Positions 12,664 through 42,480 of a DNA stretch of 64,000 nucleotides are shown here, one piece after another. Under the pieces are notes generated by a model. It was not told the DNA's origin. It did no database searches and saw only the letters and a list, made by a program, of their open reading frames with translations. How positions within the stretch are numbered: position 1 is the first letter of the stretch; every line of letters begins with the position of its first letter. A program made the translations under genes and the position numbers. Source of the DNA: an uncultured candidatus Porisulfidus sp. (GTDB taxonomy: Bacteria; Pseudomonadota; Gammaproteobacteria; Poriferisulfidales; Poriferisulfidaceae); contig OZ251520.1 in the NCBI GenBank assembly GCA_965242985.1, positions 860,492 to 924,491 of the forward strand. The letters are read 5' to 3'.

Positions 12664-13281
12664 ATGGCCGCACCGCGTCCGTCTCCGGCGGCGGCGGCGG
12701 CCGGGCATCACCTGTTCACCCGCAACCCGCTGCGGCCGCCGTACCCGGCGCAGCTGCGCACGGCCGAGTTCGCGCTCGGCTGCTTCTGGGGCGCGGAGCA
12801 GCGCTTCTGGCAGCTGCCCGGGGTCTGGACCACCGCGGCCGGCTACGCCGCGGGCTCCGCGCCGGAGCCGAGCTACGAGGAGGTGTGCGCCGGGCAGACC
12901 GGGCACGCGGAGGCGGTGCGCGTGGTGTACGACCCCGGGCGGCTCGACTACGCGCAGCTGCTGGCCTGCTTCTGGGAGGGGCACGACCCGACCCAGGGCA
13001 TGCGCCAGGGCAACGACATCGGGACGCAGTACCGCTCCGGCCTGTACTGGGCGGACGCGGAGCAGGAGCGGCTGGCGCGGCGCAGCCGGGAGCTGTACCA
13101 GGCGGCGCTGGCGCGCGCCGGGCGCGGCGACATCACCACCGAAATGGCGCCCGCGGGGCCGTTCTGGTTCGCCGAGGACCTGCACCAGCAGTACCTCGGC
13201 CGGAACCCCGGCGGCTACTGCGGCCACGGCGGCTGCGGCGTGGCGTTCCCGCTGGCGGCGCTGCGCCGGGAAGCGGCGTGA
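12664..13281 (+). CDS. msrA: Peptide methionine sulfoxide reductase A
   Basis: GCFWGAE active-site motif and overall MsrA fold signature. Confidence 0.85.
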
Positions 13282-13655
13282 GCCGCCGCCGCGTCCGGCC
13301 GGCGGCGCTGGGGCTGGCGCTGCTGGGGCTCGGCGCCGCCGCCGACCTCCCGGCGCGCGACGCCGGCGGCGCCTACAAGGCGCGCGGCTTGGGGCTGGAC
13401 ACCTGCGTCAGCTTCCGCGACACCCCGGAGCCGGAGCGCGGCCCGTACTTCGGCTGGCTGGCGGGCTACCTCACCGCCTACAACTACCTGGTGCGCGACA
13501 CCTACAGCATCGCCGAGTACTCCAGCCTGGCCCGCACCAACGACTGGCTCGAGGGCTACTGCCGCGAACACCCGGAGCGGATGCTGCACGAGGCGGCGCG
13601 GCAGTTCGTCACCGAGCGCTACCGGATCCGCCTCAAGCGCGGCCCGGCGCGCTGA
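13278..13655 (+). CDS. Small secreted hypothetical protein
   Basis: GTG start overlapping the msrA stop (GTGA). Signal-peptide-like N-terminus [22 protein letters not shown] followed by a ~100-aa soluble domain. Frame is the 3' part of ORF 12648..13655. Confidence 0.4.
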
Positions 13656-13718
13656 CGCCGTGCTACGATTCCGGGACGATGCGCGCGCGCCCGTCCCCGT
13701 CCGCTGCCGGATTCCCCC

Positions 13719-14527
13719 ATGCCTAAGGTCGCCGCCGTGCAGATGGCCTCCGGGCCGAACTTCGACGCCAACCTGCTGGAGGCGGAGCGCCTGCTCGAGC
13801 AGGCCGCCGCGGCCGGCGCGCAGCTGGCGGTGCTGCCCGAGAACTTCGCCCTGATGGGCATGCAGGACCGCGACGTGCTGGACTACCGCGAGGACGACGG
13901 CGCGGGGCCGATCCAGCGCTTCATCGCCGAGCGCTGCCGCCGCCACCGGCTGTGGATCGTCGCCGGCACCATCCCGCTGCGCTGCGAGGACCCCGAGCGC
14001 CTGGCCGCCGCCTGCATGCTGTACGACGACCGCGGCGAGCGCGTCGCGCGCTACGACAAGATCCACCTGTTCGACGTCACCCTGGTCGGCAGCGGCGAGA
14101 GCTACAACGAATCCGCCACCGTGCGCCCGGGCCGCGAGGCGGTGGTGGCCGAGACGCCGTTCGGGCGGCTGGGGCTCGCGGTGTGCTACGACCTGCGCTT
14201 CCCGGAGCTGTTCCGGGCGCTGCTCGACCAGGGCGCGGAATTGCTGGCGCTGCCGGCGGCGTTCACCGCGGTGACCGGCAAGGCGCACTGGGAGAGCCTG
14301 CTGCGGGCGCGGGCGATCGAGAACCTCGCGCACCTGGTGGCCAGCGCCCAGGGCGGCTACCACCTGAACGGCCGCGAGACCCACGGCCACTCGATGATCC
14401 TCGACCCCTGGGGGCGCGTCCTGGGCCGGCGCGCGCACGGCGCCGGCGTGGTGACGGCGGAGCTGAGCCGCGCCGACCAGCAGCGGCTGCGCCGGACCTT
14501 TCCCTGCATTGAGAACCGGAAGCTGAC

Positions 14528-14546
<19 letters not shown>
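13719..14546 (+). CDS. Carbon-nitrogen hydrolase family protein (Nit/omega-amidase-like)
   Basis: AAVQMASGPNFDANL..., LPENF, CYDLRFPELFRAL motifs (E-K-C triad context). Conserved position upstream of tldD. Confidence 0.8.
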
Positions 14547-15977
<1,431 letters not shown>

Positions 15978-15988
<11 letters not shown>

Positions 15989-17315
15989 GGCGGCGCCGGC
16001 GCAGCGCCTCGAGGCGTGCGCGGCGCAGGCGCTGGAGGCGGCGCGCGCGGCGGGCGCCGACGCCGCCAAGGTGGCGCTCAACCAGGGCCAGGGCCGCGTG
16101 GTCGGGGTGCGCCTGGGGGAGCTGGAGACGATCGAGCACGAGCGCGAGCAGCAGTTCTCGGTGCGCGCCTACTGCGGCCGGCGCAGCGGCGCCGCCGGCA
16201 GCACCGACCTGACCCCGGAGGCGGTGGCGCGCACGGTGGCGGCGGCCTGCGCCATCGCCCGGCAGACCGAGGAGGACCCCGCGCAGGGCCTGCCGGAGCG
16301 GGACTGGCTGGCGTTCGACTACCCCGACCTGGAGCTGGAGCACCCCTGGGAGCTGGAGCCCGAAGCGGCGACCGGCCTCGCCCTCGAATGCGAGGACGCG
16401 GCGCGCGCGGACGCGCGCATCGCCAACTCCGAGGGCGCGCGCCTGACGACTTGGAGCGGCGTGCACATGGTCGCCAACAGCCTGGGCTTCCTCGGCCGCT
16501 GCCGGCGCAGCCAGCACAGCCTCAGTTGCTGCGTGGTGGCCGCCGGCGACGGCGCCCAGGAGCGCGACCACTGGTGGAGCGCGGCCTGCGACTGGCGCCG
16601 GCTGGAGGAGCCGGCCGCCGTCGGCCGCGCCGCCGCGGCGCGCGCCGCGCGCCGGCTGGGCGCCCGGCCGCTGAAGAGCCGCGCCGCGCCGGTGCTGTTC
16701 GAGGCGCCGCTGGCGTGCTCGCTGCTGGGGCACTTCGCCCACGCCGCCTCCGGCCCCGCGCTGTACCGCCAGGCTTCGTTCCTGCTCGGGCGCATGGACC
16801 AGCCGCTGTGGCCGCCGGGCTTCCGCCTGGTCGAGCGCCCGCTGGAGGCGGGCGGCGCCGCCAGCGCGCCGTTCGACGCCGACGGCGTGCGCACCCGGGA
16901 GCGGGCGGTGGTGGAGGACGGGGTGCTGCGGGGCTGGTTCCTCGGCACCTACGCGGCGCGCCGCCTGGGGCTCGAGCCGACCGGCAACGCCGGCGGCGTG
17001 CGCAACCTGATGCTGGAGACGGACGGCGAAGAGCTGCCGCCGGAGGAGCTGCTGCCGCGGCTCGGCCGCGGGCTGTGGGTGACCGAACTGCTGGGGCAGG
17101 GCGTCAACCCGGTCACCGGCGACTACTCCCGCGGCGCGGCCGGCTTCTGGGTCGAGAACGGCGAGATCGCGCACCCGGTGCACGAGATCACCATCGCCGG
17201 CTCCCTGCCGGACATGTACCGCGGCATCGCCGCGGTGGGCGCGGACCGCGACCGCCGCGGCAGCATGCAGTCCGGCTCGCTGCTGATCGAGCGCATGCAG
17301 ATCGCCGGCGCCTGA
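15978..17315 (+). CDS. pmbA: Metalloprotease PmbA/TldE
   Basis: Similarity to PmbA (SVRAYCGRRSGAAGSTDLTPEAVARTV...). Confidence 0.8.
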
Positions 17316-17384
17316 GCCCCGCGGCCCCGGGAACCGGGCCCGCAACGAGTTTTCCGGCTTTTTGGAAGCCGCGCATGGGGAAAT

Positions 17385-17500
17385 TAATTTCTCAAGCAAG
17401 AATTTATACGTAACATACGGATATCCATTAATATCCAGCAATTCCCCAGGGTGAAATCCAGCAATTCCGCAGGACAAAATCCAGCAATTCCGCAGGCTGC
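17385..17500. repeat. AT-rich intergenic element: 12-bp palindrome gaaattaatttc plus three 23-bp direct repeats of (a/t)aatccagcaattcc(g/c)cagg
   Basis: Read directly: ...atatccagcaattccccagggtgaaatccagcaattccgcaggacaaaatccagcaattccgcaggc... ~35% GC in a ~70% GC genome. Confidence 0.6.
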
Positions 17501-17607
17501 GGCAGCGGGGCTTGGAGGCCGCGTCCGCCGCTTGTCCGCTGGAACCGCCTGCGGATTTGAGCAAGCAGGCTCCCCGGCCGCGTCCGCGCCGCGGGCGCGG
17601 GCCGGCC

Positions 17608-18300
17608 TCAGCGCGCCGCCGCGCGCTCGTAGCGCGCCAGTTCCAGCCGCACCCGCTCGGCGCCGTCCTCGTAGCGCACGGTGCGCACCATCCACTGCCC
17701 GCGCGCGGGGTCGTGCCAGGTCAGGATGCGGCTGCCGCGCGCGTCGCCGCGCGTCCGCTCGAGCCGCCACGCCTCGAGCTCCTCGCCGGCCGCCTCGATG
17801 CGCTCCAGCGCCGGCGGGGAGAAGCGGTACACGCGCAGTTTCCCGCGCGACAGCACGCTGTAGTTGGGCGGCGTGCGCGGCAGGTCGCGCATCAGCCGCA
17901 GCGCCAGCGCCGCCGGGTCGAGCTGGCCCGCGCGCAGCGGCAGCGTCTCCGCGCCGCCGGGGCGCTCCACCCGCACCTGGGCGTTCGGCCAGTCGTAGAC
18001 GTAGCGGTACTCGCGGCCGCGGCCGGCGTCGCGGTAGAAGTACTCCAGCGGCCGCAGGTCGCCGCGGCGCACCGCGCCGCGCTCGGTGATCGCGCCGCGC
18101 CCGAAGCGCCGCGCCAGCCAGCTCGGGGCGGCCGCCGCCTCGTAGTCGATGCGCGCCGCGCCGCGGGCGACCGTCACCGTCACCTCGCCCGCGGCCATGC
18201 CGCGGTAGTACAGGTCGTAGACGGCGCGGGTGACGTCGGCCGCGGCCGGCGCCGGCAGCAGCGCCGCGGCCAGCGCGAGGCTAGAAGCGGTCCTCGGCAT
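17608..18300 (-). CDS. DUF3108 domain protein (periplasmic, signal peptide)
   Basis: Signal peptide MPRTASSLALAAALLPAPAAA and DUF3108-like beta-rich body. Conserved position downstream of purN. Confidence 0.6.
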   Translation of the reverse strand: MPRTASSLALAAALLPAPAAADVTRAVYDLYYRGMAAGEVTVTVARGAARIDYEAAAAPSWLARRFGRGAITERGAVRRGDLRPLEYFYRDAGRGREYRYVYDWPNAQVRVERPGGAETLPLRAGQLDPAALALRLMRDLPRTPPNYSVLSRGKLRVYRFSPPALERIEAAGEELEAWRLERTRGDARGSRILTWHDPARGQWMVRTVRYEDGAERVRLELARYERAAAR

Positions 18301-18928
18301 AGCGGTAGAACACCGGCTCGTCCAGCCGTTCGCCGTGCAGCCAGGCGGCGCCGTCGGCCATGCGCAGGGCGCCGATGCAGAACCACTCCACCGCCAGCGG
18401 GAAGATCTGGTGCTCCAGGCTCCGCACCCGCTCCTGCAGCCCGGCCTCGGTGGCGTCGCCGTCCCGCACCCGCAGCGAGGCCTGGATCACGCGCGGGCCC
18501 TCGTCCAGCGCGGCGGTGGCGAAGTGCACGGTCGGGCCGTGCTCCGGCTCGCCGGCCGCCAGCACCCGGCGGTGCGTGTGCTCGCCGGGGTAGGCCGGCA
18601 GCAGCGAGGGGTGGACGTTGAGGATGTGCCCGGCGCGGGCGTCGATGAACTCGGCGGTCAGCACGCGCATGTAGCCGGCCAGGCACACCAGCTCGATGTC
18701 GCGCCGGTCCAGGTACTCGGCCATGGCCCGGTCGCGCGCGGCGCGGTCCGGCTCCTCCACCGCGTGCGTCTCGATCCCGGCCGCCTGGGCGCGCTCCAGC
18801 GCGCGCGCGTCGGCGTGGTTGCTGAGCACGCAGACGATGCGGCCGCGGATGCGCCCGGCCTGGGTGGCATCGATCAGCGCCTGCAGGTTGCTGCCGTTGC
18901 CGGAGGCGAGCACCGCGATGGCGGTCAT
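18281..18928 (-). CDS. purN: Phosphoribosylglycinamide formyltransferase
   Basis: MTAIAVLASGNGSNLQALIDA... and HPSLLP motif. It is the C-terminal part of the artificially long ORF 18281..19768. Confidence 0.85.
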   Translation of the reverse strand: MTAIAVLASGNGSNLQALIDATQAGRIRGRIVCVLSNHADARALERAQAAGIETHAVEEPDRAARDRAMAEYLDRRDIELVCLAGYMRVLTAEFIDARAGHILNVHPSLLPAYPGEHTHRRVLAAGEPEHGPTVHFATAALDEGPRVIQASLRVRDGDATEAGLQERVRSLEHQIFPLAVEWFCIGALRMADGAAWLHGERLDEPVFYRYAEDRF

Positions 18929-19956
18929 GGCCGCGCCTCCGCGTACACCACCTCCGCGGGCCCCGCGCCCGGGACCACCTCGCCGATGACGCGCGCCGGC
19001 ATCCCGGCCGCGGTCAGTTCCGCCGCGAGCGGCTCGGCGTCGCCGGCGCGCGCCGCCGCCACCATGCCGATGCCGCAGTTGAACACGCGGCGCATCTCTT
19101 CCTCGCCGACCCGGCCGCGCTCGGCCAGCCAGTCGAAGAGCGCCGGACGTTCCCAGCTCGCGGGATCGATCGCCGCCCGCACCCCGTCCGGCAGCATGCG
19201 CGGGACGTTGCCGTCGAGGCCGCCGCCGGTGATGTGGGCGAGCGCCAGCACCCGCCCGGAATTGATGACTTTCATCAGGTATGGGACGTAAATGGTTGTG
19301 GGGACAAGAAGTTTCTCGATGATTTCCGGGTCGGGCTCCGGCAGGCCGTCGAGGATGTCGTGGACCAGCGAGTAGCCGTTGGCGTGCGCGCCGGAGGAAT
19401 CCAGCCCCAGCAGCAGGTCGCCGGCGGCGACCGGCTTCGGCAGCAGGCGCGCGCGCTCGGCCGCGCCGACGCAGAAGCCCGCCAGGTCGTAGTCGCCGGC
19501 GGCGTACAGCCGCGGCATCTCGGCGGTCTCGCCGCCGAGCAGGGCGCAGCCGGCCCGCCGGCAGCCGTCGGCGATGCCGCGCACCACCGCCTCGGCCGCC
19601 GCCACCTCGAGCTTGCCGCAGGCGTAGTAGTCCAGGAACAGCAGCGGGCGGGCGCCGTGGGTCAGGACGTCGTTGGCGCACATCGCCACCAGGTCGATGC
19701 CGATGGCGTCGTGGCGGCCCAGGCGCCGCGCCAGCAGCAGCTTGGTGCCGACGCCGTCGGCGCCGCACACCAGCACCGGCTCCTCGAGGCCGTCCGGCAG
19801 CCGGTACAGGCCGCCGAAGCCGCCGAGGCCGGCCAGCACGCCGGCATCGAAAGTGTCCCGCGCCAGCGGCCCGATGCGCCGCACCAGTTCCGCGCCGGCC
19901 TCGAGGTCGACGCCGGCGGCGCGGTAGCGGGAAGAGGCGGCGGTCGGTTCCGGCAT
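18925..19956 (-). CDS. purM: Phosphoribosylformylglycinamidine cyclo-ligase
   Basis: AGVDLEAG..., GGFGGLY, AIR-synthase-related domains. ATGA overlap with purN. Confidence 0.85.
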   Translation of the reverse strand: MPEPTAASSRYRAAGVDLEAGAELVRRIGPLARDTFDAGVLAGLGGFGGLYRLPDGLEEPVLVCGADGVGTKLLLARRLGRHDAIGIDLVAMCANDVLTHGARPLLFLDYYACGKLEVAAAEAVVRGIADGCRRAGCALLGGETAEMPRLYAAGDYDLAGFCVGAAERARLLPKPVAAGDLLLGLDSSGAHANGYSLVHDILDGLPEPDPEIIEKLLVPTTIYVPYLMKVINSGRVLALAHITGGGLDGNVPRMLPDGVRAAIDPASWERPALFDWLAERGRVGEEEMRRVFNCGIGMVAAARAGDAEPLAAELTAAGMPARVIGEVVPGAGPAEVVYAEARP

Positions 19957-34966: not shown

Positions 34967-35042
<76 letters not shown>

Positions 35043-42008: not shown

Positions 42009-42047
42009 TGATGCTATGATGCCTGCCGGAAGCGGGCCGGACAGCCG
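42009..42047 (+). repeat. Direct repeat, right copy (native rnpB promoter/5' end, attR-like)
   Basis: See 40018-40056. Confidence 0.65.
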
Positions 42048-42365
42048 CCGCCTGCGGGCGGAGGAAAGTCCGGGCTCCACAGGGCGGGATGCCAGGCAAC
42101 ACCTGGGGGGCGCGAGCCCACGGCCAGTGCCACAGAAAACATACCGCCGGGCGCAGGCCCGGTAAGGGTGAAAAGGTGCGGTAAGAGCGCACCGCGCGGC
42201 TGGCAACAGGCGCGGCAGGGTAAACCCCATCCGGAGCAAGACCCAATAGGGGGGCGATCGCGTGGCCCGCGCGGCTCCCGGGTAGGTCGCTAGAGCGGGG
42301 CGGCGACGTCCCGCCCAGATGAATGGCTGTCCTCGACAGAACCCGGCTTACAGGCCCGCTTCCCC
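42028..42365 (+). ncRNA. rnpB: RNase P RNA, bacterial type A
   Basis: Collinear with E. coli M1 RNA: gaagc.ggacag..gccgc, GGAGGAAAGTCCGGGCTCCA, GGTAAGGGTGAAA..GTGCGGTAAGAGCGCACC, ACAGAACCCGGCTTA. Confidence 0.85.
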
Positions 42366-42480
42366 TCGCCCCGGCAGTGGAGATTTCCTCCGCCCCCGTC
42401 CGGCTCCGGAATCCGAACTTTCTATAAATATGATTATATAACATATAAATAACTGGAATACATAAGAGGTTGTTTAGTGT

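Follow-up and report, generated by a model that had tools for sequence, protein, structure and literature searches.

We examined a repeat array in the 292-bp spacer (17316-17607) between two convergent genes, pmbA and a DUF3108 gene, on contig OZ251520.1 of an uncultured candidatus Porisulfidus sp. The 64-kb stretch analysed around it is called the window, and unlabelled positions are those of the window; other loci carry L numbers (L081, L082 and so on) with their own coordinates. On the left, pmbA (15978..17315, + strand) encodes PmbA_TldD domains (E 4.7e-62), and on the right the DUF3108 gene (17608..18300, - strand) matches the Pfam model at E 2.2e-10; both flank the element and lie outside it. 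Between them we found a GC-rich left edge, an AT-rich block with a palindrome, three direct repeats and a second GC-rich segment.

The GC content is 37% in 17360-17440, 44% in 17346-17498 and 80% in 17499-17607, and it is this last segment that brings the average of the whole spacer to 62%, in a window of 74% GC. An earlier reading made from the sequence alone (the sequence-only reading) had given the region about 35% GC, which is close for the AT-rich core and too low for the spacer as a whole. The left edge of the inserted unit (17316..17345, + strand) aligns with L081, the closest relative described below, and loosely with the other loci of what we call class A (CCGGGCC...); it is absent from the empty site of L082. 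By eye, a short GC-rich inverted repeat followed by TTTT (17351-17354) could be the terminator of pmbA. A terminator consensus scan did not call it, and promoter and terminator scans of the spacer region called nothing.

The AT-rich block (17346..17429, + strand; 37-44% GC) is the upstream part of the control region of a gene that the window has lost, and it aligns with the upstream regions of L081, L084, L086 and L088. It holds the conserved motifs TAACATA (17411-17417) and ATTAAT (17427-17432), as well as the perfect 12-bp palindrome GAAATTAATTTC (17380..17391), found by sequence inspection. A shuffle test shows that a palindrome of this length is only mildly unusual, being matched in 132/5000 shuffles of the AT-rich stretch. 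The four other loci carry AT-rich palindromic elements at the equivalent place, with sequences that differ from GAAATTAATTTC.

The three direct repeats occupy 17430-17498 with start-to-start spacings of 23 and 23, and the 13-mer ATCCAGCAATTCC is exact in 3/3 units. Allowing up to 2 mismatches, ATCCAGCAATTCC has 4 matches in the window against 0.47 expected, a count that 0/100 shuffles reached. Unit 1 (17430..17452, + strand; core CAATTCCCCAG at 17439-17449) is homologous to unit 1 of L081, whose core is CAATTCAACAG. Unit 2 (17453..17475, + strand; core CAATTCCGCAG at 17462-17472) is homologous to unit 2 of L081, with core CAATTTCACAG. Unit 3 (17476..17498, + strand) has the core CAATTCCGCAG at 17485-17495, and it is here that homology to L081 stops (blastn block end 17495 / L081 4510). 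The sequence thus agrees with the three phased 23-bp repeats and the perfect palindrome that had been described between these convergent genes. Successive units follow each other head to tail, leaving only about 12 nt from one core to the next, so the earlier statement that this is not a CRISPR array also stands.

A third gene lost from the junction

Relatives were found by a protein search with PmbA, which returned a small clade in metagenome assemblies, and four contigs were compared. Exact look-ups of the PmbA and DUF3108 proteins of the window itself returned no record. In L081 (PmbA 98% identical), positions 1-4510 match window 12988-17495, including pmbA, at 97.7% identity, and positions 5806-7291 match window 17601-19086, including the DUF3108 gene, at 98.25% (both by blastn). 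Between the matching blocks, L081 has 1295 bp (4511-5805) with a gene for a 415-aa AAA_14/DUF4143 protein, against 105 bp in the window. An AT-rich block, a palindromic element and three repeats stand at the same place in L081, directly upstream of this gene. No homologue of the L081 ATPase was found anywhere in the 64-kb window. The oddity that had been noticed, a regulatory array where two genes converge, is accounted for in this way: a third gene once sat there, as it does in L081, and was lost here.

The junction (window 17313-17610; L081 4331-5813) also varies in the other relatives. The site is empty in L082 (PmbA 91% identical; 6341-6351), with 9 bp between the stop codons of pmbA and the DUF3108 gene, and L083 (2178-4013) and L109 (3727-5380), both with PmbA at 90%, carry three tandem small open reading frames (ORFs) of about 112 aa. 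This makes the convergent junction a hot spot for cargo in the lineage, being empty or filled by an ATPase unit, small ORFs or a relic array. The small ORFs (L083 2416-3991 and L109 3936-5354) are paralogous, about 110-114 aa long, and match the alpha chain of nitrile hydratase weakly (E 3e-4 to 0.02). From their sequences they look like leader peptides of ribosomal natural products of the nitrile hydratase-like leader peptide (NHLP) type; no maturation enzyme was visible in the flanks of the L083 and L109 contigs retrieved.

In the window, the lost gene is replaced by GC-rich filler. The 105-bp replacement spans 17496-17600, and homology to L081 resumes at 17601; its part beyond the last repeat (17499..17600, 80% GC) stands where one would expect the ATPase ORF of 1.25 kb, preceded by its start-codon region and -10 element. 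The filler contributes to an imperfect hairpin with arms at 17485-17508 and 17536-17559, carries an inverted partial repeat core, CCTGCGGATTTG, at 17548-17559, and contains the direct repeat GGCCGCGTCCGC at about 17518 and 17576. A fold-back event during the deletion is one possibility for its origin. Local alignment of the filler with the L081 unit gave no significant similarity, with scores equal to those of shuffles; a remnant of the L081 ORF start, seen in an alignment by eye, was dropped for this reason.

The hairpin bears on one of the candidates of the sequence-only reading, a small RNA gene, which would have an AT-rich promoter and a transcript of about 130 nt carrying the three repeats and ending at the hairpin 17485-17559 plus UUUG. 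An AT-rich promoter-like stretch does lie upstream, and the long imperfect hairpin is followed by GAUUUG and has a minimum free energy of -54.7 kcal/mol (z-score -1.86; 8/200 shuffles folded as well). However, this hairpin lies in filler specific to the window and is absent from L081 and all intact copies. No conserved RNA structure emerged either: the alignment fold of the four intact upstream regions gave -6.3 kcal/mol, with a covariation term of -0.81 and the repeats unpaired. The Rfam scan that had been proposed (Rfam 15) returned nothing relevant at gathering or E-value thresholds, its one hit being a chance match to mir-207 at E 0.75. Together with the silent promoter and terminator scan, and with repeats that overlap -10 hexamers and start codons in homologues (see below), this makes a small RNA gene very improbable.

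The protein encoded by the L081 gene matches Pfam AAA_14 (E 1.9e-22) and DUF4143 (E 5.7e-43), with weak helix-turn-helix (HTH) matches at residues 221-264, and it matches the PADLOC model PDLC04790 for PDC-S01 at E 5.6e-145. DUF4143 has been placed in the PD-(D/E)XK nuclease superfamily (PMC3424549). PDC-S01 is reported to rank fourth in frequency among defence candidates in prokaryotes and has not been validated (PMC12988326); a clone of the coding sequence alone gave no protection against T4, T5 and T7 (bioRxiv 10.1101/2024.09.26.614923). An AlphaFold2 model of P0121, a protein 98% identical to that of L081, has a mean pLDDT (predicted local distance difference test) of 76 and a pTM (predicted template modelling) score of 0.72. 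In this model the N-terminal ATPase core is followed by helices at 215-227, 235-242 and 246-258 and then by a beta wing, which fits a winged helix, and an alpha/beta C-terminal domain comes next. Foldseek neighbours, all at low TM-scores, include Apaf-1/CED-4/STAND (signal transduction ATPases with numerous domains) proteins, Orc1/Cdc6 on origin DNA, the archaeal ATPase PAB2304, MalT and Can2-type nucleases. Invariant in 40 homologues are the Walker A motif, a DE pair, E343-V344-D345...K360 and several basic residues of the wing. Judging from the model, the protein looks like a DNA binder.

Searches by sequence against solved structures and against NCBIfam found no relative of the ATPase. Neither an ATPase relative nor the class A array pattern was present in viral contigs; phage records gave only proteins of 25-33% identity, in uncultured gut phage contigs, and blastn of the module against plasmids gave no match. 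The gene neighbours of ATPase homologues include toxin-antitoxin, cyclic-oligonucleotide-based antiphage signalling system (CBASS), restriction-modification and insertion sequence genes. When the contexts of the homologues were compared, no second gene was found conserved beside the array.

Arrays upstream of related ATPase genes

Homologues of the L081 ATPase with 81-84% identity were found in three other, unrelated contexts: L084/85, L086/87 and L088. One stands after an N6/N4 methylase, one after a HipA toxin pair and one after a patatin/DncV-like CBASS cluster. All share the class A upstream order, which is an AT-rich palindromic element, TATAACATAT, ATTTATTAAT, three period-23 units with the core CAATTTCACAG at -95, -72 and -49, TAnCAT, CATGGGC and the start codon. 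The control block and the ATPase gene travel as one unit, and the repeats are a property of the gene and not of its location. Class A comprises four independent loci only (L081, L084, L086 and L088).

More distant homologues (42-67% identity), called class B here, have 3-5 units with the core CAAnTGGACG at -95, -72, -49, -26 and -3; such arrays, with a period of 22-23, extend to homologues of about 34-41% identity. Arrays of this type were found in metagenomes and on plasmids of Azotobacter, Spartinivicinus, Agrobacterium, Rhodoferax, Novosphingobium, Rhizobium and Marinobacter; in a Sulfitobacter homologue the array is visible by eye only. Intact units stand, for instance, on plasmid NZ_CP045303 of Azotobacter salinestris KACC 13899 and on pB of Spartinivicinus ruber. 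The cores CAATTTCACAG and CAAnTGGACG have CAAwTnnAC in common. The 3-5 nt on the 5' side of each core are constant within a locus and variable between loci (TGTA, CCGT, CCGA or TCCAG, comparing L095 1944-2025, L096 2431-2489, L092 2408-2489 and window 17430-17498), a pattern that may be the signature of concerted evolution or of local unit duplication.

In the 130 nt upstream of the gene, the best self-similarity lag was 23 in 17/22 loci and 22 in 4/22, and in 15 of those 21 loci no more than 1/300 shuffles did as well. A position-weight matrix was built leaving out the tested locus each time, with 1.3 Mb of unrelated loci, both strands, as controls; its sites were picked by hand, against which leaving one out guards only partly. 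The best three-site array lay directly upstream of the ATPase gene, on the same strand, in 21/22 loci (16-48 bits), and 20 of these 21 arrays scored above the control maximum of 19.3 bits.

The period of 22-23 is missing from homologues at or below 34% identity (Thermus, Octadecabacter, Nitrosomonas, Runella and Moraxella), so that the array is a feature of this subfamily and not of all DUF4143 genes. Three loci with proteins of 27-34% identity, L113 (Thermus JL-18), L117 (Runella) and L118 (Moraxella), have inverted repeats beside the start codon in the 60 nt examined before it, for instance CTGAATGA-cta-TCATTCAG in Thermus; in Moraxella they form a palindrome of about 45 nt. Their sequences suggest that other DUF4143 subfamilies may use a different type of operator.

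The array lies over the predicted promoter of the gene and reaches its start: the final unit reads caaATGgacg in L092-L097, six loci of class B, and so includes the start codon itself. A TAnnnT hexamer ending 5-10 nt before the start codon was present in 5/13 loci against a background of 3.2% (P = 3.5e-5); two further loci, L094 and L095, have TGTAAT or TCTAAT 6 nt upstream of it instead, so that at least 7/13 arrays hold a -10-like hexamer placed for a leaderless transcript. TTGACA, TTGATA or TTGAAT is found one unit further upstream in L093-L095 and L097, so that a repeat core fills the spacer between the -35-like and -10-like hexamers. A -10-like hexamer 6-9 nt upstream of the start was seen in L092-L097 and L107, which suggests that these mRNAs may be leaderless or nearly so. 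In class A, the conserved TAnCAT follows directly after unit 3, and the promoter logic would be the same as in class B, shifted by one unit. Intact class A units also have, about 26 nt upstream, a CATGGGC whose reverse complement, GCCCATG, is found at the start codon, giving 7-nt arms and a loop of roughly 15 nt (L081 4523-4551; L084 2975-3003; L086 2975-3003; L088 3031-3060). This pair could hide the AUG within the mRNA, or it could serve as an operator of palindromic form; among the four sequences available its pairing shows almost no covariation.

Two further explanations meet this positional evidence. Repeats of 22-23 bp are typical of iterons (RK2, R6K and P1), and the array might be an iteron set of a plasmid-like or satellite replicon, with the protein an initiator of the Orc1/Cdc6 or Rep kind and the window a dead origin. 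The shape fits, since the three window units have a period of 23; in class A an AT-rich block of about 100-170 bp adjoins the repeats, the protein model has Orc1/Cdc6-DNA and STAND neighbours, and many homologues are plasmid-borne. However, the unit consists of one gene in 12 contexts, and in the 1-3 kb or so to its left and right there is no adjacent rep, par or mobilisation gene, only unrelated toxin-antitoxin, CBASS, restriction-modification or insertion sequence genes. The surroundings of 17316-17607 contain no DnaA box, and that region of the window has no rep or par gene. The arrays of class B, whose hosts are GC-rich, lack such a block and sit on the -10 and the start codon of the gene, the carrier plasmids possess replicons of their own, and the protein combines a conserved nuclease motif with its strong match to a defence-candidate model. 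We therefore regard a replication origin as improbable. The term iteron-like, used in the sequence-only reading, is fair for the shape of an array that in homologues overlies the predicted promoter of an ATPase-nuclease gene as well as its start codon. Its suggestion of an iteron remnant of an integrated element holds for a remnant of horizontally acquired DNA and finds no support for a role in replication or partition. Its third suggestion, protein-binding sites, appears the most plausible for the repeats.

The repeats might also be transposase-binding sites at one end of a mobile element, as at the ends of Tn7 or Mu. Several direct sites of 22-23 bp do lie near one boundary of an inserted segment, and the junction is a variable insertion site. 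Against this, the unit includes neither a transposase nor an integrase, the region 3' of the ATPase gene has no inverted end to match, and comparison of L081 with the empty site of L082 showed no target-site duplication. The position of the array is fixed relative to the start codon and not to the insertion boundary, and the viral contigs gave no match, all of which leaves a transposon end scarcely credible.

The window copy, its interpretation and known systems

In the window, the period of 23 and the CAATT half are present, and the conserved AC has become GC or CC in 3/3 units. The family matrix gives this array 8.4 bits, below the control maximum. The position of TAnCAT reads CAGCGG. The -10-like element, CATGGGC, the start region and the ATPase ORF are all replaced by filler, and we therefore regard the window copy as a relic and not as a working unit.

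The module is 80.8% identical between the window and L081, and the third codon positions of the flanking tldD, pmbA and DUF3108 genes differ by 2.3-3.4%. Of the 35 differences from L081, 27 have G/C in the window and A/T in L081; when polarised with outgroups, 13 changes were derived in the window (11 from AT to GC) and 3 in L081. If third positions are about 95% GC, a figure assumed here, A/T sites would flip about 19 times faster than G/C sites. This rough rate argument suggests that the drift from AT to GC is what release from constraint would produce. Left with neither promoter nor gene, the array in the window is most likely a decaying relic.

We consider it probable that the window array is the orphaned 5' control region of an acquired AAA_14/DUF4143 gene, and that the intact arrays are operators on the gene's own promoter. 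The intact repeats would be head-to-tail protein-binding sites about two helical turns apart over that promoter, with one site in the spacer between -35 and -10, one or two upstream, and one on the start of transcription and translation. Occupancy of the sites would set the transcription of a potentially toxic nuclease gene, by repression or by activation. The encoded protein is the simplest candidate for the binder because the array travels with one gene across proteobacterial classes and no second gene is conserved with it. We infer that it would most probably bind via its winged helix, possibly cooperatively as an ATP-dependent oligomer. In the genome of the window, the -10 element and the start region have given way, along with the entire ORF, to 105 bp of GC-rich DNA.

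Several observations weigh against this interpretation. The -10 and -35 assignments are pattern matches, the class A units have no convincing -35, so that the promoter is not pinned down for the type relevant to the window, and some start codons in metagenomic loci were set from tblastn coordinates. Motif variants follow the protein phylogeny, which is no proof that the ATPase binds, because co-inheritance predicts this tracking as well as co-evolution does. Finally, the window units are more alike (mean pairwise identity 0.84) than those of any intact locus (0.62-0.77), units 2 and 3 have the same two changes relative to L081 and no private ones, and the ATPase search covered 64 kb of the genome, outside which a paralogue is possible. 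The homogeneity is at odds with purely neutral decay; it points to concerted evolution and could also mean that the array is still in use. Co-variation between winged-helix residues and the repeat core was considered separately; class-specific residues exist, are confounded with phylogeny and were not used.

These last points also speak for an array that still functions, one that would bind or titrate a paralogous AAA_14/DUF4143 protein, or some other DNA-binding protein, encoded outside the window. The exact 13-mer shared by the units would fit such a use, as would the frequent presence of several PDC-S01 genes per genome; some of the plasmids examined have two matching places. However, the array (about 16%), the AT-rich block (about 23%) and the left edge (about 17%) have all diverged from L081 to an equally high degree, so that the units show no extra constraint. 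An A that is invariant in the core across the family is lost in 3/3 units, and the array scores below control noise. Tandem repeats homogenise through slippage or conversion without selection, and these processes can explain the likeness of the units. A functional array in the window is unlikely on this evidence, although less so than an origin, a small RNA gene or a transposon end.

A broader role for the intact arrays can be imagined, as a DNA platform for head-to-tail assembly of the AAA+/winged-helix/nuclease protein in the manner of Orc1/Cdc6 or Rep-iteron complexes; we think this doubtful. If it were true, the activity of PDC-S01 would depend on an element in cis, for example through sequestration of the nuclease on the promoter with release or activation triggered by infection, or even through local replication. 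Constructs of the coding sequence alone would then misreport the system, and orphan arrays could titrate paralogous proteins.

For the genome itself, the result is a modest one: a seemingly misplaced regulatory array is what a lost defence-island gene left behind at a hot spot for cargo, and it illustrates the fast drift of AT-rich foreign DNA towards GC in a genome of 74% GC. The array of the subfamily offers more, namely a predicted recognition sequence for the winged helix and a predicted autoregulatory circuit. A conserved array on the promoter and start codon is also a reason for keeping the native upstream region in functional tests of PDC-S01. The family has been described only as a protein (PMC12988326; bioRxiv 10.1101/2024.01.29.577857), and no description of a repeat array in cis tied to PDC-S01-type genes was found in the literature searched. 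The kind of element, a direct-repeat operator array with iteron-like autoregulation, is familiar; the array linked to PDC-S01 is itself apparently undescribed in that literature.

The native surroundings of the junction are conserved. In the window, tldD and pmbA stand in tandem (14528-17315), overlapping by 11 nt, and are preceded by a CN_hydrolase gene, as they are in L081, L082 and L109. Elsewhere in the window are a bacterial class A RNase P RNA (311 bits; 42029-42366) and a tRNA gene (34967-35039).

Among known systems, PDC-S01 is the closest: the L081 gene that owns the control region matches both its model and Pfam AAA_14 plus DUF4143 (COG1373), and homologues of the gene stand next to toxin-antitoxin, CBASS, restriction-modification and insertion sequence genes. 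The window differs in keeping the upstream region only, the gene being gone. A conceptual likeness exists with the controller (C) protein operators of restriction-modification systems, which also stand before a mobile, nuclease-encoding defence gene and delay or limit its expression once it has been transferred. In those systems a small, separate HTH dimer binds C-boxes that are inverted repeats, whereas the ATPase-nuclease gene has 3-5 direct repeats and no separate regulator gene.

The archaeal Orc1/Cdc6 proteins share with the model an AAA+ core followed by a winged helix, and 2qby, bound to origin DNA, was among the top Foldseek matches. As with their genes, the ATPase gene adjoins repeated sites and, in class A, an AT-rich tract. 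The resemblance is distant, with TM-scores of about 0.23, 13% sequence identity and an extra nuclease domain in the ATPase-nuclease. Orc1/Cdc6 boxes are inverted and flank an unwinding element, whereas the sites of the ATPase-nuclease are direct repeats on a promoter. STAND activators of the MalT type bind direct-repeat boxes upstream of promoters, and 8bob was among the fold neighbours; in both cases a nucleotide-driven oligomeric ATPase would occupy asymmetric direct sites by or over the -35, as proposed here for the ATPase-nuclease. MalT has an HTH of the LuxR type and regulates other operons, whereas the sites of the ATPase-nuclease belong to the protein's own gene.

That last property is shared with iteron autoregulation in P1, where the promoter of repA lies inside the incC iterons. 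The differences are that no replication function is indicated for the array, that the protein is an AAA+/winged-helix/nuclease fusion and not a Rep of the RepA, TrfA or pi type, and that DnaA boxes are missing. The likeness is in the arrangement: multiple sites in head-to-tail order, spaced by about two helical turns, cover the promoter of the gene for the protein that we infer to bind them.

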